Positions 12,512 through 20,038 of a DNA stretch of 64,000 bases are shown piece after piece. The translations under genes were made by a program, and so were the position numbers. How positions within the stretch are numbered: position 1 is the stretch's first letter; every line of letters starts with the position of its first letter. Source of the stretch: Pseudomonadota bacterium (GTDB taxonomy: Bacteria > Myxococcota_A > Polyangia > Palsa-1104 > JAEUJZ01); NCBI GenBank assembly GCA_035340095.1, contig DAORGN010000002.1, forward strand, positions 1,160 to 65,159, in the 5' to 3' direction. The notes beneath the pieces are model-generated. The model had not been told where the DNA came from. It saw nothing but the letters and a program-made list of their open reading frames with translations, and made no database searches.

Positions 12512-13093
12512 CTACCGCCGCAGCCTGGATTGCGCCGTTTCAAGCGCTGCGGGCGTATCCACATCGACCAGTACTTCGGGATCGTCGACCGGAACGCGCA
12601 GCGGCGGATGTGTATCGCGCAGCGCTCGCAAAGAAGTCGACGACGGCAGCGCCAGCACATCGGCAAACTGTTCCGACGGTAGCCAAACGGGATGTCCGCC
12701 GCGATCAGCAAACGTCGGCACCAGCCAGCGTCGTCGATCTGCGGCCAGCAGTGTTTTGATCGTCGCAGTCTGCACGAGCGGCACGTCGACGGGCCACAAG
12801 AGCACGCCTTCGACGGGAGCCAGCGCTCGCAGTCCGCAGCTTATCGACGACAACATGCCTTCTTCGGGGGCCGGATTCCAGACCAGATCAACCGGCGACG
12901 CGGATTTCTTAATCCAGCGCGCAATCTCGTCGCCGTGTGGTTTCGCCAACACCACTTTGGGCGTGCGGATTCCCAGCTCGTCGAGCACCGACAAAATTCG
13001 ATCGATCACCACCGAGTCACCGAGCGGACAGAGCGCTTTGGGTGTGCCCATTCGACGGGATGCACCTGCCGATAGGATCAGCGCGTCGATCAT
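12512..13093 (-). CDS. MobA-like NTP-transferase domain protein (molybdenum cofactor cytidylyltransferase MocA-like)
   Basis: The N-terminus MIDALILSAGASRRMGTPKAL is the MobA/MocA nucleotidyltransferase signature. It overlaps the upstream xdhC-like gene by 4 nt (ATGA). Confidence 0.65.
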   Translation of the reverse strand: MIDALILSAGASRRMGTPKALCPLGDSVVIDRILSVLDELGIRTPKVVLAKPHGDEIARWIKKSASPVDLVWNPAPEEGMLSSISCGLRALAPVEGVLLWPVDVPLVQTATIKTLLAADRRRWLVPTFADRGGHPVWLPSEQFADVLALPSSTSLRALRDTHPPLRVPVDDPEVLVDVDTPAALETAQSRLRR

Positions 13094-13971
13094 GCCAGCT
13101 TGGATGCCTCGGCCAGCAGTCGTGGCGCTGCGGTGCGTGCGGTTTCGCTGTGCGGCTGTGCGGCGGGTTTCGCTGCGTGGTTTCGACGGGCACTTCGCAC
13201 CGCGGTAAGCTCGGCGGCAATCGCCAGCGCAATTTCAGCCGGGGTTTCGGCGCCGATCGGCAGACCAATCGGTGCATGGATTTGGGCAATCTCCGCTTCG
13301 GGAAAACCCTTGTGAAGAAGTCGCTTTTGAAACGTCGTCACTTTGCGCTGCGAACCAATCATCCCAAGATACGCGAGCGGTTTGCCCAGAAGCTGTTCGA
13401 GGATGGCCTGATCGGTCGCATGCTCGCGCGTCACCACCACCACATACGTCCGCTTGTCGAGCGGGATGTCTTTCCAGTCGCGTACATCGAAGCTGTCGAT
13501 GATCTGGGTATCAGGAAAGCGCTCTGGGTTGCCAAGCTCGGGCAAATCTTCGACGACAATCGGGACAAAATCGAGCGGCCTCAAAAGCGGAACCAGCGCT
13601 TTGGCGACGTGACCTCCACCGCAGACGATCACCAGTTCATCGGGAAACATGGGCTCCAGCAGGATCTCCATTTCGCCACCACAGCACATCGCCAGCTCGT
13701 GTGTCAGGTGATAACGGACGCGCTCGCACTGGGCTTTTTGGCCGAGCGCAAGAAGCTCCGCCGCGCGAAGCAGCACCTGCCGTTCGACGCGCCCACCGCC
13801 GATCGTGCCGACTTGGTCGATGTGACCTGCGACTTTGCGAATCAGCATGCGCGTGGCGTGTTTGCGCGGTGTACTTCCAGCCGTCCTGACGACGGTGCAA
13901 AGCACCATGCTTTCACGGGCTCTGCTCGACGCAAGCAGTGCCTCAAAGACCTCAACCTCGCGGCTCACCAA
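13090..13971 (-). CDS. XdhC/CoxI-family molybdenum hydroxylase maturation factor
   Basis: The XdhC_CoxI N-domain (VLCTVVRTAGSTPR) and the XdhC Rossmann domain (LVIVCGGGHVAKAL) are both present. Confidence 0.75.
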   Translation of the reverse strand: MVSREVEVFEALLASSRARESMVLCTVVRTAGSTPRKHATRMLIRKVAGHIDQVGTIGGGRVERQVLLRAAELLALGQKAQCERVRYHLTHELAMCCGGEMEILLEPMFPDELVIVCGGGHVAKALVPLLRPLDFVPIVVEDLPELGNPERFPDTQIIDSFDVRDWKDIPLDKRTYVVVVTREHATDQAILEQLLGKPLAYLGMIGSQRKVTTFQKRLLHKGFPEAEIAQIHAPIGLPIGAETPAEIALAIAAELTAVRSARRNHAAKPAAQPHSETARTAAPRLLAEASKLA

Positions 13972-14035: not shown

Positions 14036-15448
14036 TTAGCTGCTGCGTGGTCCGAGCGCTTCTTTGCGCATCATCGCATCGACGAGGAAAAACAGCGCAA
14101 AGTAGGCATCTTCGATGGTCGAGCGGCTGGATTCGGCGCTGTGGCCGGCCTGTCGAAAGCGCAGATAACGATCCGCAGGCAGTCCCAGCACCAGTGCACG
14201 CCAGGCCGGTCCTTCATCCGGTTCGCGCGCGGTATCGCTCACTTGCAGCGAAAAAAAGATGCCAACGGTCCGTCGGACAGCCTGCACGTACTGCGTCGCG
14301 TGGATCAGCCGCTCGACTTCTTGCACTTGCGCGCGCTGCGGACCGGGCGCAAGCAGCATGCTGAGGCCTTGATCGCGGCCCGCGGCTTCCATGCGCGGCG
14401 GCTGCGGCTGTAGCGGCGGTTTGCTCGGCTGCGCCAGCCGCGATCCCGGCATCGTCTTGTCGAGCGCCGCGGCACCATGCGGGCGGGGCGGGGCGGCTTG
14501 CGGCGGCGTATCCACGGCAATGGGACGCGGCGGACGGCTTGCGCGCGGGCGGATGATTTCTTCGACCGCGGGGAGCTGTTGACCGTCGGCGCGAACGGCT
14601 TGCACCACTTCGCTGGACTGATCGGGATTGGGCAGCGGCGGTGCCGACAGACCACTCATCGGCAGAATCTCTTGCGAGCGTCCGGCCTGTTCCCGCAGCA
14701 GTGCCGATTCGTCGATGCGCAGTGGCTGATCGAGCGTGTAGCGCTGGACCAGGCTGCGCAGTGCGGCTTGGGCTTCGTGGGCCGCCAGCATTCGACGCGC
14801 CGTCACCATGTCATTGCCAAACGACAGATCGCTCGTCGGCATCGAACCGGTTTGACCCAGCTCGGGCCGTTTGCGCAGCGCACTGGCTAGCGCTTCGGTG
14901 GCGAGCATCCGGAACGAATCAAACACCCCTTGGCCCGTCGCTGCAATCATTGGAACTGACTGCGACTGCCGGATGCCGAACGCCGGTTCCAGATCCGACA
15001 GCGCCACCGCGTCCGCGAGATCGCGCTTGTTCCATGCGACGACGAGCGGCACATCTTGAAGCCGCATCCCCAGATCGAGCAGGCAGTTGCGCAGCTCCTC
15101 GAGCGCGGCGGCACATTCGTTTTCGCGGCCTCTGCGGCTGTCCCAGACAAACAGAATTCCGTCACAACCCGCGAGCAGCGCCCGTCTGGTCGATTCGTTT
15201 TGTACGCTGCCCGAACCGGCAAAGACCTGCGCGTGTACCGGGGCTCCCAAAAGCGGTGGTGGCGGCGGATAAAAGTCGAAAAACAGGGTCCGGTCGGCAC
15301 CTGTGTTCACCGAAACAATTTGGCCGCGTACCTCGGGGCGCAGCAGCTTGTGAAGCTGTGTCAGCGCCGTGGTTTTTCCAGCTCCTGCTGGCCCGTAATA
15401 CACGAGCTTGAGGAGCACTTCGCGAGCCTGCGAATAAAGCTGCGCCAC
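14036..15448 (-). CDS. MglA-family Ras-like GTPase with ~280 aa C-terminal extension
   Basis: The N-terminal 190 aa align block-for-block with Myxococcus MglA. KLVYYGPAGAGKTT matches KIVYYGPGLCGKTT, and DRTLFFDF, GILFVWDS, NKRDL and GVFDS have counterparts. A Pro-rich linker and a C-terminal globular region of about 100 aa follow. Confidence 0.8.
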   Translation of the reverse strand: MAQLYSQAREVLLKLVYYGPAGAGKTTALTQLHKLLRPEVRGQIVSVNTGADRTLFFDFYPPPPPLLGAPVHAQVFAGSGSVQNESTRRALLAGCDGILFVWDSRRGRENECAAALEELRNCLLDLGMRLQDVPLVVAWNKRDLADAVALSDLEPAFGIRQSQSVPMIAATGQGVFDSFRMLATEALASALRKRPELGQTGSMPTSDLSFGNDMVTARRMLAAHEAQAALRSLVQRYTLDQPLRIDESALLREQAGRSQEILPMSGLSAPPLPNPDQSSEVVQAVRADGQQLPAVEEIIRPRASRPPRPIAVDTPPQAAPPRPHGAAALDKTMPGSRLAQPSKPPLQPQPPRMEAAGRDQGLSMLLAPGPQRAQVQEVERLIHATQYVQAVRRTVGIFFSLQVSDTAREPDEGPAWRALVLGLPADRYLRFRQAGHSAESSRSTIEDAYFALFFLVDAMMRKEALGPRSS

Positions 15449-15558: not shown

Positions 15559-16173
15559 CTAGGGCAGGTAGATGCGGGTGAGCGCCTGACCGCCCGCGTA
15601 GTGGCAGAGGTTGCAATCGACGCGGACTGTGGCGCCGGTGGCCGGGTCCTGACCGACTTTCTGGATCATGGTCTGGACTCGTTTTGCGGTGCTACAGTCG
15701 GGGCCGGTCGTCTCACAGACGCGGGCAATCATCGGCGCGGTAAACTTCGTCGCGGTATAGAAGTTACCGACGGAGTTGGTCGTTAGACGTCCTTTCGGCT
15801 GGACCTGACCGTACTTGTAGGCGCCTTGCGGATCGTCTTGTCCGTAGAGGATCTCGACCACCATGTTTGGCAAGCCCTCGCCGGAATTACAGCCCGAGGT
15901 CTTGTTTGCAAACAGCGTTCCCGAGACAGTCCACGGTGAGTTTTTTGCCTGTCCACCTGTGCTATGGCATGCGCCGCACACCCGACCGGGCAGCATCGTG
16001 GCAGTTGCCATTTTCATGGCATCGGTAGGGTCTTCCCCCTGACAACTGGCCTGCGCTTCGGCTGGAACTGTCAGTCCGTCGGTATCTCCGCATGCACTTG
16101 TCCCAAGCAGAGCCAGGCCCAGGCCCAGAGCCGACAGCCAACCAAGCGGCCTTCTCCCACGATGCGAACTCAT
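15559..16173 (-). CDS. lipoprotein with two CXXCH haem-binding motifs (putative c-type cytochrome)
   Basis: Start taken at MSSHRG..., which has a GGAG ribosome-binding site 6 nt upstream. The signal peptide carries lipobox LGTSAC. CGACH and CNLCH motifs are present. It is paralogous to the adjacent upstream gene. Confidence 0.6.
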   Translation of the reverse strand: MSSHRGRRPLGWLSALGLGLALLGTSACGDTDGLTVPAEAQASCQGEDPTDAMKMATATMLPGRVCGACHSTGGQAKNSPWTVSGTLFANKTSGCNSGEGLPNMVVEILYGQDDPQGAYKYGQVQPKGRLTTNSVGNFYTATKFTAPMIARVCETTGPDCSTAKRVQTMIQKVGQDPATGATVRVDCNLCHYAGGQALTRIYLP

Positions 16174-16195
16174 ATTGACTACTCCTTTTCTGTCA

Positions 16196-16705
16196 TCATT
16201 GGATGTAAATGCGGTCCGCCGCCAACCCACTGGCGAAATGGCAACTCGCGCAGCCGGTGGTGAGGTCAACTGCTCCGGTCATCTTGAGCAACATCGCGCC
16301 CTTCGAGACTCGAGCGGTTGCGTTTTTGAAGGCGGCGTTCGTCGGGAAGTGGAAATTTCCGACGGAATTCGTCATGGTGCTGGCGATGACGTTGCCCGCG
16401 GTGTCAAGGATGTCGACTTTGACGTCGGCAACTCCACCCGTGTTGCAGGTCTTGCTGTTCTTGGCTCCGTACACCGTACCACCCGTGCCGAGGATCTTGT
16501 CGGCGGCTTGCTGACCGGCTGCGTGGCAAGTCATGCAGTTGCGGCCCGGTAGCATTGCGTCCGACGCCTTCAGCATCTCGGCGGTTGGCTCTTCGCAGCC
16601 CGCTTTGGCTTGCGGTGCCGCATTGAGGTCCGCGGTATCGCCACAACCAACACCAAACAGGGGCATCGCAAACAGCAGGGCACAAGCAATGGTTCGTAGG
16701 TTCAT
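16196..16705 (-). CDS. lipoprotein with two CXXCH haem-binding motifs (paralogue)
   Basis: Start at MNLRT with a GGAG ribosome-binding site. Lipobox FGVGC. CMTCH and CASCH motifs are present, and an NSVGNF block is shared with the downstream paralogue. Confidence 0.6.
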   Translation of the reverse strand: MNLRTIACALLFAMPLFGVGCGDTADLNAAPQAKAGCEEPTAEMLKASDAMLPGRNCMTCHAAGQQAADKILGTGGTVYGAKNSKTCNTGGVADVKVDILDTAGNVIASTMTNSVGNFHFPTNAAFKNATARVSKGAMLLKMTGAVDLTTGCASCHFASGLAADRIYIQ

Positions 16706-16973
16706 CGTCACATCTCCTTTTCTCAGCAGTGCGAGCGCGTGCATCCTACGCTTTGTGCCCCCACGCCAATCTTATCTTCAAAGCCTAGGTGGCGAATAGG
16801 GGGCCTTGCGTTTGTGCGGCGGCGCTCCTTCGGTGCGACATCGCAAAACGGAGTGGTTCTGCGATTCGACCAGTGGTGCGCTTGGTTTCTGCCTCTGCGA
16901 GAGAAGGCCTGTTTTCAGGCGCCGCTTGTCCCGCACTTTGGGGTTTGGCACCTGCCTTGCTGATTGCAGCGGC

Positions 16974-18248
16974 ATGACCAACGACCAAACATCGACCCCT
17001 TCCTCTTCTTCTTCACCGGGCACCGCGTCCCACCGCTCGATTGGCATTGATGCCATCGCGTTTGCAGTGCCGCGGGCCTACGTTGAGCTGGCCGATCTGG
17101 CGGCTGCCCGAGGCGTTCCTCCGACCAAGTACATTCAAGGCTTGGGCGTCGTTCAGATGGCTGTGGCCCATCCGGACGAAGATCCCGTCACGCTCGCCAC
17201 CGAAGCGGCGCGGCGCTGTCTGATGGCGGCGGGGCGCTCTCCAGCGGAAATCGGCCTTTGCATCGTCGGTACCGAAACCGCGGTCGATCACTCCAAGCCG
17301 GTGTCGTCCTATCTGCACGGACTCCTTGGTTTGCCGTCGGCGTGCCGTGTGTTCGAAACCAAGCATGCTTGCTTTGGTGGCACTGCCGGTCTGCTCAATG
17401 CGGTCGACTGGCTGGCGGCGGGCTCTGCACGGGGCCGCTGTGCGCTGATCGTCTGCACCGACATTGCGCGGTATTCGGTTGGCACTGCGGGCGAGCCGAC
17501 CCAAGGCGCCGGCGCGGTCGCGATGCTGATCAGCGAAAATCCGCGACTTCTTGAGCTGGAACCGGGGATCACCGGCTGCTTTTCACAAAACGTCCACGAC
17601 TTTTGGCGACCGCTCTATCGAAAGGATGCGCTGGTCGACGGCCAGTTTTCGGTGCAGTGCTACCTCGACGCGCTCGCTGGAGCCTATGCCGAATGGCAGC
17701 GCCTGAGTGAAAGCAGCGAGCCGCTCGTGCGCACCTGCTACCACGTTCCTTACGGCAAAATGGCGCGCAAGGCCCATCAGCGCCGCTGCCAGCTCGACGG
17801 CATGACCGATGAAGCCGCCGACAAGAGCTTTGCCGTTGAAGTCGAGCCCTCGCTGCGGGTTCCTTCACAGGTCGGCAACATCTACACTGGCTCGCTTTAT
17901 CTTGCGCTCCTTTCGCTCCTCTACCACCAAGCGGCGGAGCTTTCGGGCAAGCGGATCGGACTATTTAGCTACGGCTCGGGCTGCGCCGCGGAGTTTTTCG
18001 CTGGCCGGGTGATGCCGACCGCTGCGGCCCAGATCGCGCGGGCTGGTGTCGATACAACGCTCGCCAATCGGCATCGGCTGGACATTCCGGTCTACGAGGA
18101 GCTGCGCAAAAACGACATTCATGTCGATCAGCGTCCATCCGAAATGCCGTCAGCCGCGGAAACCGGTGCCGCGCTCGCCATGGTCGATCGATCGCCGCGA
18201 TTTAACGGCATCGACAACCAAGAGCGCCGCATCTACACCGTCGCCTAA
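16974..18248 (+). CDS. mvaS: hydroxymethylglutaryl-CoA synthase
   Basis: The active-site block ETKHACFGGTAGL and overall HMGS architecture are present. The start is chosen at the ATG at 16974 (MTNDQ...). The ORF-track start at 16806 adds an implausible Cys-rich leader. Confidence 0.8.
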   Translation: MTNDQTSTPSSSSSPGTASHRSIGIDAIAFAVPRAYVELADLAAARGVPPTKYIQGLGVVQMAVAHPDEDPVTLATEAARRCLMAAGRSPAEIGLCIVGTETAVDHSKPVSSYLHGLLGLPSACRVFETKHACFGGTAGLLNAVDWLAAGSARGRCALIVCTDIARYSVGTAGEPTQGAGAVAMLISENPRLLELEPGITGCFSQNVHDFWRPLYRKDALVDGQFSVQCYLDALAGAYAEWQRLSESSEPLVRTCYHVPYGKMARKAHQRRCQLDGMTDEAADKSFAVEVEPSLRVPSQVGNIYTGSLYLALLSLLYHQAAELSGKRIGLFSYGSGCAAEFFAGRVMPTAAAQIARAGVDTTLANRHRLDIPVYEELRKNDIHVDQRPSEMPSAAETGAALAMVDRSPRFNGIDNQERRIYTVA

Positions 18249-18388: not shown

Positions 18389-18462
18389 GGGTGCATAGCT
18401 CAGGTGGTTAGAGCGCAGCCCTGATAAGGCTGAGGTCCCTGGTTCGAATCCAGGTGCACCCA
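18389..18462 (+). tRNA. tRNA-Ile (anticodon GAT)
   Basis: A cloverleaf can be drawn. The acceptor is GGGTGCA/TGCACCC, the D-arm GCTC...GAGC, the anticodon stem CAGCC/GGCTG with loop CTGATAA (anticodon GAU), and the T-loop TTCGAAT. The discriminator is A. No CCA is encoded. Confidence 0.85.
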
Positions 18463-18466
18463 CTCG

Positions 18467-20038
18467 TTAGTATCCCTTGGTATCTAAGGGAAAACTTGGT
18501 CCTTTGGGTGGGGCAGGTTTGGCTCGGTGGCGATGCCGGCGTGTCTTCGTTGCCTTGCTCGTTTCCTCAGTTCCCGTTTCGGGCTCGGCTGAGGGGGCTT
18601 TTTTCGCGACTGCGTCTGCTGGTTCCGCTGATGCGACGCTTGCGGTCACGGGCGCTGGTTCGCTGCCTGGTCGCGCTTCCGGTACAAACAGTACTTTTTG
18701 CGCGGCTTGTTCTCTTTGGGCGGTTTGTTGACTGGCGAAGCTTGGTGTGGGCGGCGGTCGCTTTCGGAGCCAGACGCCCCACAGCACGGTCAGAATCGCA
18801 ACCACAAGCGATGCCACAGCGAGCGTTCGCGCGCGGCGTGCCGCAGTCTGGTGTGCACCGTTGGTTAGCACCGCCGTTGCCATTCGCAAAGGCCGCGTCG
18901 CTCCTGAACTGCTGATGACCGTCGGAGGGGCTCCTGAATCGCCAGGCGCGAGCGTAGGCGGACCTGACCCAGTAGAAACCTCGCCGGGACTGGCTGCTGG
19001 CTGGGGCAAGGCGGGCCGAATGGTCTGACCACTTGTCGACGGAAGGAACTGGATCAGGATCTGGAGCGCTACCGCACAATCGACGGGCCGGTTTTCCAGG
19101 GACTGCGACAGAAACTGATCGAGCGCGGGCTGCAAGTCTGGTGGAAACGTAGTGCCTGGCAGAAGCTCGGTCAGACGCAGCGGCGGCGAAACCATGCGCG
19201 CCATCACCATCGACACTTCCGATCGACTCGTTTCCCCCCACGGCAGTTTTTTGGTCAGCATTTCCGTCAAGATGACCCCGACGGCAAACACATCTGATTG
19301 GGGGCTGGCTTCGTCGCCTTGCAGCGTTTCCGGCGCCATGTAGTGCGGCGTTCCGAGCGCTGTTTGCGTCGATGTCACCCGTGTCTTGCGACCGAGTACG
19401 CGCGCGATGCCGAAGTCGAGCACCTTGACGACCTCTTCCGCCCCAACCGAAAGCGGCTTGCGCGCGACGAAGATGTTGTCCGGTTTGACGTCGCGGTGGA
19501 TGATCTGCCGAGTGTGCGCCGCCGCGAGTGCACGCACCGCCGGGATGAGCAGCTCCAGCGCCCGCAGCAGCGGCATCGGGGCTTCCCGCTGAATCAGTCG
19601 GTCGAGCGTTTCCCCCCCGAGCAGCTCCATTGCGATGTAGCTTTGGCCGTCGCTGGTGTGGCCGCTGTCGAAGATGGTCACCGCGTTTGGGTGGTCCAGG
19701 CTGCTCGCAATTTGGGCTTCCCGCTCGAAACGTTTGCGCATTTCGGCGCTCTGTCGATGCTCGCTGCGGAGCAGTTTCAGGGCGACGCGACGACCGATGC
19801 CGGCTTGGGTGGCGACGTAGACCTCGCTCATGTGGCCGTAGCCAAGCGGCTCACCCAAGACGTACTTGCCGCCGAACACGCGCTGATCGCCAAGTAGTTG
19901 TGCGCCATCTTTGGCACAAAAATTGGCGTCCCCGTCGGGTGGTAGATAAACAGAGTGGCAACTCGGGCAGTATTTGCCCAGCACGGTGGGTGGCGGATCG
20001 AAGTTTTGCGCCACGTTGTGTGCTGCAGTTTCCGTCAT
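18467..20038 (-). CDS. Ser/Thr protein kinase with N-terminal zinc-ribbon and C-terminal TM/low-complexity tail
   Basis: Hanks motifs are HRDVKPDNIF, DFGIA and GTPHYMAPE. The N-terminus has CPSCH...C. One TM helix is followed by a Pro/Ala-rich tail. The stop lies 5 nt from the tRNA 3' end on the opposite strand. Confidence 0.85.
   Translation of the reverse strand: MTETAAHNVAQNFDPPPTVLGKYCPSCHSVYLPPDGDANFCAKDGAQLLGDQRVFGGKYVLGEPLGYGHMSEVYVATQAGIGRRVALKLLRSEHRQSAEMRKRFEREAQIASSLDHPNAVTIFDSGHTSDGQSYIAMELLGGETLDRLIQREAPMPLLRALELLIPAVRALAAAHTRQIIHRDVKPDNIFVARKPLSVGAEEVVKVLDFGIARVLGRKTRVTSTQTALGTPHYMAPETLQGDEASPQSDVFAVGVILTEMLTKKLPWGETSRSEVSMVMARMVSPPLRLTELLPGTTFPPDLQPALDQFLSQSLENRPVDCAVALQILIQFLPSTSGQTIRPALPQPAASPGEVSTGSGPPTLAPGDSGAPPTVISSSGATRPLRMATAVLTNGAHQTAARRARTLAVASLVVAILTVLWGVWLRKRPPPTPSFASQQTAQREQAAQKVLFVPEARPGSEPAPVTASVASAEPADAVAKKAPSAEPETGTEETSKATKTRRHRHRAKPAPPKGPSFPLDTKGY

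Follow-up and report, generated by a model that had tools for sequence, protein, structure and literature searches.

Two adjacent genes, here called cytA and cytB, come from an uncultured myxobacterium, whose assembly also holds HMY58412.1 and HMY58413.1. They lie on the minus strand of a 64-kb window (the whole stretch of DNA that was analysed), and each encodes a lipoprotein with two CXXCH motifs. An earlier note on this DNA had already described them as such, and all the features that it listed were found again on this strand. The genes, their mapped parts and the neighbouring gene downstream are as follows:

16714..16723, minus strand: cytA Shine-Dalgarno region AGAAAAGGAG, ending 8 nt before the ATG
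16705..16196, minus strand: cytA coding sequence, 169 aa, putative A-type dihaem beta-sandwich lipoprotein cytochrome c (open reading frame and translation, family alignments)
16643..16705, minus strand: cytA lipoprotein signal peptide, residues 1-21, with lipobox Cys21 as last residue (conservation of Cys21)
16523..16555, minus strand: cytA putative haem-1 site MLPGRNCMTCH, Met51 and Cys57-His61 (invariant residues)
16262..16486, minus strand: cytA predicted central beta-sandwich, approximately residues 74-148, GTVY ... TNSVGNF ... ARV ... Met142 (AF2, Foldseek, sub-threshold Pfam matches)
16238..16252, minus strand: cytA putative haem-2 site CASCH, Cys152-His156, with the C-terminal strand RIYIQ after it (invariant residues)
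16182..16191, minus strand: cytB Shine-Dalgarno region AGAAAAGGAG, ending 8 nt before the ATG, within the 22-nt cytA-cytB spacer
16173..15559, minus strand: cytB coding sequence, 204 aa, B-type paralogue (open reading frame and translation)
16090..16173, minus strand: cytB lipoprotein signal peptide, residues 1-28, with lipobox Cys28 (LLGTSAC) as last residue (alignment and translation)
15964..15996, minus strand: cytB putative haem-1 site MLPGRVCGACH, Met60 and Cys66-His70 (alignment and translation)
15667-15669, minus strand: cytB conserved Met169, upstream of the haem-2 site
15601..15615, minus strand: cytB putative haem-2 site CNLCH, Cys187-His191 (alignment and translation)
14036-15448, minus strand: small-GTPase-like gene, 470 aa, downstream of cytB (Arf and DO-GTPase2 matches)

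An export signal and a lipobox are present in both products. In translation, CytA starts with MNLRTIACALLFAMPLFGVGC followed by GDT, and CytB likewise continues with GDT after ...LLGTSAC; the lipobox context is FGVGC in the former and TSAC in the latter, with LVGC, IAGC and LSAC among orthologues. The CytA motifs CMTCH (57-61) and CASCH (152-156) are 95 residues apart, and CGACH (66-70) and CNLCH (187-191) are 121 residues apart in CytB, which carries a longer sandwich insert and an additional cysteine pair (C153 and C160). The NSVGNF core and the RIY(L/I) C-termini that the two proteins had been said to share are indeed found in both translations, the latter as RIYIQ in CytA and RIYLP in CytB.

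The pair is flanked, as reported, by the small-GTPase-like gene and by the HMG-CoA synthase gene (mvaS), which lies upstream of cytA and diverges from it. Pfam support for the GTPase is marginal: the Arf match scores 22.7 bits against a cut-off of 22.3 without any separately significant stretch, and DO-GTPase2 stays below threshold. Its adjacency is ordinary local synteny, and a functional connection with the GTPase, XdhC and MobA-like genes downstream was dismissed, this synteny being confined to close relatives. The neighbourhoods of relatives are unrelated to one another, and no recurrent partner genes were found at the loci of 20-odd of them, except for mvaS synteny and the pairing of A- and B-type genes. 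Other c-type cytochromes adjoin some relatives. One paralogue begins 19 nt after the gene for a protein with four transmembrane segments, which has sub-threshold similarity to DUF4079/cytochrome b561 and, as read off its translation, several histidines in hydrophobic segments. Apart from cytA and cytB the 64-kb window has no plausible ORF for a CXXCH cytochrome, and no cytochrome c maturation (Ccm/Ccs) genes or respiratory complexes were found in its scanned part.

The genes cytA and cytB, which are 22 nt apart and each have a strong ribosome-binding site, are probably co-transcribed; no promoter-like or terminator-like sites were found around the pair. The sequence context before the two start codons had been described as duplicated, and the identical AGAAAAGGAG does stand 8 nt before each ATG. 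This 10-mer occurs exactly twice in the window, once per cyt start codon, when shuffled sequence gives 0.13 matches on average and one shuffle in 100 reaches two. Outside the Shine-Dalgarno core, however, the upstream similarity is not convincing, and the stretch before the cytB start codon is made up of the 22-nt spacer and, upstream of it, the 3′ end of the cytA reading frame. Among orthologues, AAAGGAG is kept at the A genes of loci L001, L013, L014, L015 and L017 and ahead of the B genes of L001, L009, L014 and L018; the B copy of L001 reads CAAAAGGAG, and this variant, together with the retention of AAAGGAG in B orthologues, is the pattern expected under selection on a Shine-Dalgarno site. 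To judge from these sequences, the 10-mer is a strong ribosome-binding site under selection and conserved in orthologues, and not a duplicated leader.

How old, then, is the duplication itself? CytA and CytB are 35% identical over 178 columns (BLASTP, E 6e-19), a match that makes them true paralogues and not a chance resemblance. The A-type and the B-type fall into clades of their own, both with orthologues in further lineages; cytA orthologues are 98-64% identical, and 37 B-type clusters were found. A-B pairs recur at L001-4, L014-18, L009/L028, L079 and L080, distant lineages included, and usually beside mvaS. Separate clades and orthologous pairs in distant lineages make the duplication an old one, from which no neutral non-coding sequence could still survive. 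By these comparisons the event is ancient, not recent. The earlier note had proposed a whole-gene duplication carrying the UTR, and such a recent event, copying the 5′ UTR and ribosome-binding site with the gene, would fit the 10-mer at identical 8-nt spacing and nowhere else in the window; it is nevertheless scarcely credible in view of the low identity of the two proteins, the two clades with their own orthologues, the cytA coding sequence upstream of the cytB ribosome-binding site, and the divergent L001 copy beside conserved B orthologues. The retention of both forms as a pair suggests non-redundant roles, although a B-type gene without an A partner at L078 indicates that pairing is not obligatory.

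The two proteins belong to a large family that has neither a curated model nor a solved structure. A profile search of 1.84 billion representatives gave 1722 matches at E<=1e-10, the small ones mostly spanning the whole module with two CXXCH motifs 85-95 aa apart, and a second search returned 563 proteins within the same E-value limit, the majority of them from MAGs of Myxococcota. The family is distributed mostly in Myxococcota, with some members in Holophagaceae/Geothrix; the 61 genomic loci, which include Corallococcus, Citreicoccus, Anaeromyxobacter and Geothrix/Holophagaceae, are a taxonomically biased sample, since the search for related loci from alignment A1 used a single peptide pattern. 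Cultured hosts of the family include Corallococcus sp. CA053C and Citreicoccus inhibens M34. Multi-module relatives contain two to five modules fused in a single protein, with up to about 10 haems, and one fused variant bears an extra class-I-like CXXCH domain. Giant repeat proteins free of CXXCH match the profile only at the sandwich.

The remark that no family could be named for these proteins holds: in a Pfam and NCBIfam scan of CytA, CytB and 66 relatives no model reached its cut-off, and the NCBI label for the exact proteins is "hypothetical". Sub-threshold matches to several cytochrome c families were seen in up to 51 of the 66 members, and the pipeline labels of relatives include "cytochrome c553" and "mono/diheme cytochrome c". 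Searches of PDB sequences, whether started from one sequence or from a profile, turned up nothing beyond the SdrD B sandwich and trivial matches local to CXXCH, and no description of the architecture was found in the literature.

Conservation across homologues, the lack of which the earlier note had named as a refutation, is complete at the CXXCH motifs. Both are invariant, histidine included, in alignments A1 (21 sequences), A3 (66) and A4 (103, single-module members), and in the 103 sequences the invariant residues are C21, M51, G54, C57, C60, H61, M142, C152, C155 and H156 (CytA numbering). The lipobox cysteine is thus present in 103/103 members, and a lipobox-like motif in 94/102. Paired CXXCH motifs were counted in 234 modules from 203 proteins, where a methionine occupies position -6 of haem 1 in 226 modules and another precedes haem 2 in approximately 223, a conservation of about 95-97%; the gap from the latter to CxxCH is about 9-10 residues, or 17 in the B-type.

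This conservation makes it very probable that CytA and CytB each bind two haems covalently. Mature CytB has two histidines in all, each inside a CXXCH motif, which excludes bis-His ligation and makes His/Met ligation likely. The candidate distal ligands are the invariant M51 and M142, and both haems are most likely His/Met-ligated through these two family-invariant methionines. Ligation of this kind would make them six-coordinate electron carriers and not catalysts.

Between the two haem sites a transthyretin/SdrD-B-like sandwich is predicted. The AF2 model of CytA, which contains no haem, is beta-rich (strands 74-79, 96-100, 106-111, 117-120, 129-135 and 138-141; pLDDT 87.7, pTM 0.80), and its haem segments at the N- and C-terminal ends are modelled with confidence. 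Foldseek comparison with the PDB matched only the sandwich (SdrD-B, UafA, transthyretin and CarboxypepD_reg-type domains), with poor and good models alike; probabilities of about 1.0 were obtained for SdrD, UafA and the beta subunit of pyrogallol transhydroxylase, and the PDB profile match to the SdrD B domain has an E of 5e-4. Of 103 members, 99 have both one linker cysteine and one sandwich cysteine and 2 have neither, a co-occurrence that fits a disulfide; a C37-C87 bond is probable.

We consider it likely that CytA and CytB are anciently diverged paralogues from a family, not described before, of c-type cytochromes with two haems and a lipid anchor, which serve periplasmic electron transfer. 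Each would be exported by Sec, then cleaved and acylated at the lipobox cysteine, and the cell's cytochrome c maturation system would attach two haems covalently at the CXXCH pair. In the predicted structure, an N-terminal extension bearing MxPGxxCxxCH and a C-terminal extension bearing Met-x(about 9-10; 17 in B-type)-CxxCH...GRIY would pack together on a seven-stranded transthyretin/SdrD-B-like sandwich. Tethered to a membrane and facing the periplasm, both proteins could carry electrons from one respiratory or redox enzyme to another; the A/B pair may form a heterodimer or relay resembling the fused relatives with two to five modules, or else the two may be carriers for different partners. 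Hints of electron transfer come from the sub-threshold cytochrome c matches, the fused modules, the b561-like neighbour with four transmembrane segments and the class-I-like fusion. A bolder and more tentative proposal, to which we give somewhat less than even weight, is that the family represents an unrecognised structural class, in which an Ig/transthyretin-like sandwich scaffolds the His/Met haems of a two-haem module used singly, as an A/B heterodimeric relay or in fused forms of two to five modules across Myxococcota and Holophagaceae.

Other locations and functions can be imagined for such proteins. They might be outer-membrane or surface cytochromes, modules of an extracellular electron-transfer chain (to metal, to an electrode or between cells) instead of periplasmic shuttles. 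Both proteins have glycine and not lysine after the lipid-modified cysteine (CGDT), which under the sorting rules for Myxococcus lipoproteins would favour the outer membrane. Family members also occur in Geothrix/Holophagaceae and Anaeromyxobacter, groups that have been linked to extracellular cytochromes (PMC11495043). Concatenated proteins of two to five modules, with up to about 10 haems, and the weak match to MtrC/MtrF domains II/IV point the same way, but cytA/cytB and most relatives have no genes for porin-cytochromes or multihaem conduits next to them, and most hosts appear to be aerobic predatory or saprophytic Myxococcota. The haems of known extracellular conduits are mostly bis-His, so that His/Met haems would be atypical of them, and we regard this location as unlikely. 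Small haem enzymes or sensors, peroxidase-like or ligand-binding with one open or exchangeable haem site, are more doubtful still. One relative is called "cytochrome-c peroxidase" in NCBI nr, but this label is automated and backed by no model; another adjoins a gene for a putative peroxidase of the DHOR family. Signalling is hinted at by an ECF sigma factor and a FecR-type anti-sigma factor after one paralogue, and by ECF sigma genes within a few kb at several other loci, but such factors are very common in Myxococcota and their proximity is weak evidence. Against catalysis, CytA, CytB and the 66 relatives match neither CCP_MauG nor any other catalytic haem family, and there is one invariant methionine per haem with no further conserved polar residue as a catalytic candidate.

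The earlier note had left the choice between a haem carrier and a thiol- or metal-binding protein undecided; dihaem c-type cytochromes now appear much more likely than non-haem cysteine proteins. In the latter case CXXCH would form structural zinc or copper sites or redox-active disulfides, and CXXC pairs on either side of a domain could clamp a metal; Foldseek does give a weak match to CueP, a copper protein (E 6e-3, TM 0.28), and a hit on Zn-bound Zcp. Yet all members examined have, at both sites, the histidine after the second cysteine, each motif has its invariant methionine, Cys4 zinc sites are rare in the oxidising compartment to which the proteins are exported, cytochrome c similarity recurs below threshold beyond the five-residue motif, and a class-I-like cytochrome domain is fused to one member. 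A non-haem role for the motifs is therefore very improbable.

The c-type cytochromes are very well catalogued, yet this family, with its hundreds of clusters, is annotated "hypothetical protein". If haem binding were confirmed, a beta-sandwich dihaem module would join the few non-helical cytochrome c architectures, annotation would gain the signature lipobox ... MxPGxxCxxCH ... TNxxGNF ... M ... CxxCH ... GRIY, and a part of how Myxococcota move electrons in the periplasm that is still unstudied would come into view. The practical value of the family is moderate.

How do these proteins compare with known cytochromes? Like the small class I c-type cytochromes of the c551, c552 and c553 types, electron carriers that are membrane-anchored or lipoproteins, they are small, Sec-exported, lipid-tethered CXXCH proteins, probably with His/Met haems and often encoded by stand-alone genes. 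Unlike them, they score only 11.1 and 16.3 bits with PF00034 and PF13442 (cut-offs 21.3 and 27), are predicted to be nearly all beta and not a three-helix fold, and have two putative haem sites about 90 residues apart that flank the sandwich. Local similarity near the PGxxCxxCH haem-1 motif is shared with Paired_CXXCH_1 (PF09699/TIGR01905) and with TIGR03806. For PF09699, CytA scores 19.6 bits (cut-off 20.6) and CytB has no match; in that family a single domain of about 41 residues holds both motifs, whereas the spacing here is about 90 residues and a domain intervenes. TIGR03806 (the SO2930/HNE_0200 dihaem family) is matched in 4 of 66 members, at best with an E of 1.8e-7, and membership was rejected, CytB scoring 11.8 bits over model positions 202-238 of 314 where 313 bits are required. 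CCP_MauG (PF03150) and DHOR (PF06537) were rejected likewise, neither model matching CytA, CytB or the 66 relatives.

A combination of haem-binding segments with beta domains in a lipoprotein is also seen in MtrC/OmcA/MtrF (PF22113), whose domains II/IV are matched at 17 bits against a 30-bit cut-off, with 25 of 66 members sub-threshold; those proteins are, however, bis-His decahaem cytochromes of about 650-700 aa, and cytA/cytB have no porin partner. Cytochrome f, whose c-type haem sits on a predominantly beta-sandwich scaffold, offers a precedent for such a non-helical design; the PDB searches gave no sequence or fold match to it, and it has a single haem with an N-terminal amino ligand and a transmembrane anchor, and is part of b6f. 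A further likeness is to the SdrD B, CarboxypepD_reg and transthyretin sandwiches, to which the central 75 residues or so appear homologous or isostructural (CarboxypepD_reg/SdrD_B-type Pfam scores of 19 bits against cut-offs of 30-32 bits). Those domains have no CXXCH or haem, whereas the sandwich of CytA and CytB would have gained haem-binding extensions at both its N- and C-terminal ends.

Two adjacent minus-strand genes, cytA and cytB, encode paralogous lipoproteins with two CXXCH motifs each, and are separated by a spacer of 22 nt.

Features of the cytA-cytB pair and of its products
16705 (ATG) to 16196 (stop), minus strand: cytA coding sequence, 169 aa
16173 (ATG) to 15559 (stop), minus strand: cytB coding sequence, 204 aa
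CytA, N-terminus: signal peptide leading to the lipobox cysteine, FGVGC/GDT
CytB, N-terminus: signal peptide leading to the lipobox cysteine, TSAC/GDT
CytA, residues 57-61 and 152-156: CXXCH motifs CMTCH and CASCH
CytB, residues 66-70 and 187-191: CXXCH motifs CGACH and CNLCH

In both products MLPGR directly precedes the first CXXCH, and a TNSVGNF core and an RIY(I/L) C-terminus are shared. With coordinates and motifs checked and 35% identity between the two (BLASTP, E 6e-19), the sequence features that the earlier note listed for the pair are all real. The window holds no other credible CXXCH cytochrome ORF. At NCBI the exact proteins (HMY58412.1 and HMY58413.1) are labeled hypothetical. These identical entries are filed under “MAG TPA: Pseudomonadota bacterium,” a label that is probably too coarse or wrong, since relatives with a taxonomy belong mostly to the Myxococcota/Polyangia.

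Each start codon is preceded, 8 nt ahead, by the end of a copy of AGAAAAGGAG, and these are the only two copies in the 64 kb window (shuffles gave a mean of 0.13 matches, and two were reached in 1/100). The 10-mer consists of a perfect Shine-Dalgarno core, A-rich on its 5′ side; AAGGAG stands before a start codon at only about five sites in the window. The earlier note saw here a duplicated 5′ leader or UTR, which is not borne out: ahead of the 10-mer at cytB lies the 3′ end of the cytA coding sequence, and aligning the four available flanks revealed no convincing similarity outside the core. Because orthologues keep AAAGGAG before both genes, while the cytB version at L001 (the locus of a close relative) reads CAAAAGGAG, a relic was rejected, and the shared 10-mer is, on sequence grounds, a selected strong ribosome-binding site.

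How old, then, is the duplication? Homologues of cytA and cytB lie side by side in close relatives (loci L001-4 and L014-17), and also in L018, L079, and L080, which are more distant, with A-type proteins ~46–54% identical. At L009/L028 a homologue pair is likewise adjacent, but its first gene comes from yet another subclade; at L078 the B-type gene is solitary. A direct search with CytB returned 37 B-type clusters, and in a bit-score matrix and a neighbor-joining tree the B-type proteins of different genomes group together, apart from the A-type. Since the two types cluster separately and the pairs recur across lineages, the duplication is evidently older than the split of these lineages, with both copies retained, which contradicts a scenario of recent duplication.

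The divergent mvaS gene (HMG-CoA synthase, about 16950-18248, plus strand) accompanies the pair in L001-4, L013-18, L009/L028, and L079. It is kept divergently upstream even where the remaining neighborhood differs between lineages, and at L009/L028 the two are separated by an inserted gene for an Ig-domain protein of 668 aa. The downstream GTPase, XdhC, and MobA-like genes are common only to close relatives. A functional link of the pair to any of these genes was not adopted, and the arrangement is read as synteny. The GTPase-like gene (14036-15448, minus strand, 470 aa) encodes an N-terminal small-GTPase domain with the P-loop GPAGAGKT, and a long, Pro-rich C-terminal half. Its Arf match is marginal (22.7 bits vs. 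a cut-off of 22.3, with no separately significant stretch) and its DO-GTPase2 match sub-threshold; it is 76–79% identical in close relatives and is not found beside the pair in more distant ones. The genes for XdhC (13090-13971, minus strand) and the MobA-like NTP_transf_3 protein (12512-13093, minus strand), both molybdenum-cofactor maturation factors, overlap and have no adjoining molybdoenzyme gene; beyond them lie two large genes, for 833 aa (no Pfam match) and 816 aa (Reg_prop repeats). On the other side, a tRNA-Ile (GAT; 18389-18463, plus strand) separates mvaS from a Ser/Thr kinase gene (18467-20038, minus strand), whose product carries near its N-terminus a CPSCH that looks like a zinc ribbon and not a haem site.

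The earlier note could not name the family, and indeed neither CytA, CytB nor any of 66 diverse relatives passed a Pfam or NCBIfam model. Sub-threshold matches fell to beta-sandwich families in mid-protein (CarboxypepD_reg, SdrD_B, bMG3), around the motifs to Cytochrome_C7 (51/66), Paired_CXXCH_1 (32/66), and Cytochrome_CBB3 (23/66), and locally to the SO2930 dihaem family. A first, word-indexed search yielded only 20 clusters; a profile run against 1.84 billion representatives gave 3939 matches at E<=1e-3 and 1722 at E<=1e-10, counts inflated by CXXCH-free giant proteins. These giants (1–7 kaa, 8–32 repeats) match only profile positions of about 87-120 and, having no CXXCH at all, carry plain sandwich repeats; they reveal a common adhesin-type sandwich as the source of the cytochrome core. 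Some, including P0021, P0022, and P0024, have SdrD_B/CarboxypepD_reg-like repeats with very high scores against the family profile. The other matches are small proteins spanning the whole CXXCH-sandwich-CXXCH module, their two motifs typically 85–95 residues apart. A second search, with a diverse alignment as query, found 563 proteins at E<=1e-10. Genome matches are mostly from Myxococcota (Polyangia and Myxococcales MAGs, Anaeromyxobacter, a Sorangium MAG, Corallococcus sp. CA053C, Citreicoccus inhibens M34), with others in Holophagaceae/Geothrix and Persicimonas, and related genomes hold several paralogues, such as MAG-84 (L017 and L020) and CALMML01 (L016 and L021).

In 103 single-module members, C21 (lipobox), M51, G54, C57, C60, H61, G76, T77, G116, F118, M142, C152, C155, and H156 (CytA numbering) are invariant; a lipobox-like motif is present in 94/102. 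Across 234 modules from 203 proteins, a Met stands 6 residues ahead of the first Cys of haem site 1 in 226, and 9–10 residues ahead of that of haem site 2 in about 223. Mature CytB has just two His, both within CXXCH, so that bis-His ligation is, judging from the protein's composition, impossible; CytA has one extra His, H119, which is not conserved. With one invariant Met per haem, His/Met ligation would be the natural reading. Linker C37 and sandwich C87 occur together in 99/103 members and are jointly absent in 2, a co-occurrence which suggests a disulfide. AlphaFold, at pLDDT 61 with a shallow alignment, reached pLDDT 87.7 and pTM 0.80 with 103 sequences, the segments around both CXXCH being confident. 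The CytA model has strands at 74-79, 96-100, 106-111, 117-120, 129-135, and 138-141, and short bridges connecting the N-terminal segment with the C-terminal RIY strand, which implies that on the sandwich the two predicted haem-bearing extensions are packed against each other.

Gene context offers no guide to function: most relatives are stand-alone genes with unrelated neighbors; the scanned parts of the window hold housekeeping and regulatory genes, and no respiratory or maturation genes. Four indirect hints favor electron transfer: some proteins string together two to five modules (P0035, P0023, P0087, P0047); a fused variant (L005:6175-7095) carries an added class-I-like CXXCH domain; a paralogue of the P0012 type starts 19 nt after the gene for a 4-TM protein; and a candidate sixth ligand is available for each haem. 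For these reasons we favor CytA and CytB as putative lipid-anchored periplasmic electron carriers, whose A and B forms might work jointly, in a relay or heterodimer, or else serve different partners. One rival reading places the proteins at the outer surface, in extracellular electron transfer; another is an enzymatic or sensor role, although the candidate sixth ligands argue against an open catalytic site. The invariant His and Met make it unlikely that CXXCH forms a non-haem metal or thiol site, a possibility that the earlier note had entertained.

Tandem-module proteins also include P0038, P0046, P0049, P0100, and P0106, with up to about 10 predicted haem sites per polypeptide; the last module of P0047 (702 aa) has CSNSGCH (CX4CH) as its second site. 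The three-CXXCH variant, an N-terminal class-I-like cytochrome c domain (CLACH) plus one sandwich module, has 306 aa at L005 (minus strand), where it adjoins the P0012-type paralogue divergently, and recurs at L021:3594-4637, L022:5273-6223, and L026:6103-7059. The 4-TM protein (213 aa, L005:7341-7982, plus strand; same position in L006-L008) has several His in hydrophobic segments and weak, sub-threshold DUF4079/cytochrome b561 similarity; the locus continues with an uncharacterized 351-aa protein, an ECF sigma factor, and a FecR-type anti-sigma factor. The 4-TM protein may be a b-type membrane partner that has its own regulator.

No description of the family's architecture was found in Pfam, NCBIfam, the PDB or the literature searched. 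The c-type cytochrome lipoprotein is already known as a kind of protein; what appears to be new is a repeatable module of CXXCH, a predicted transthyretin-like sandwich, CXXCH, and two invariant Met, which gives the family a clean and testable definition.
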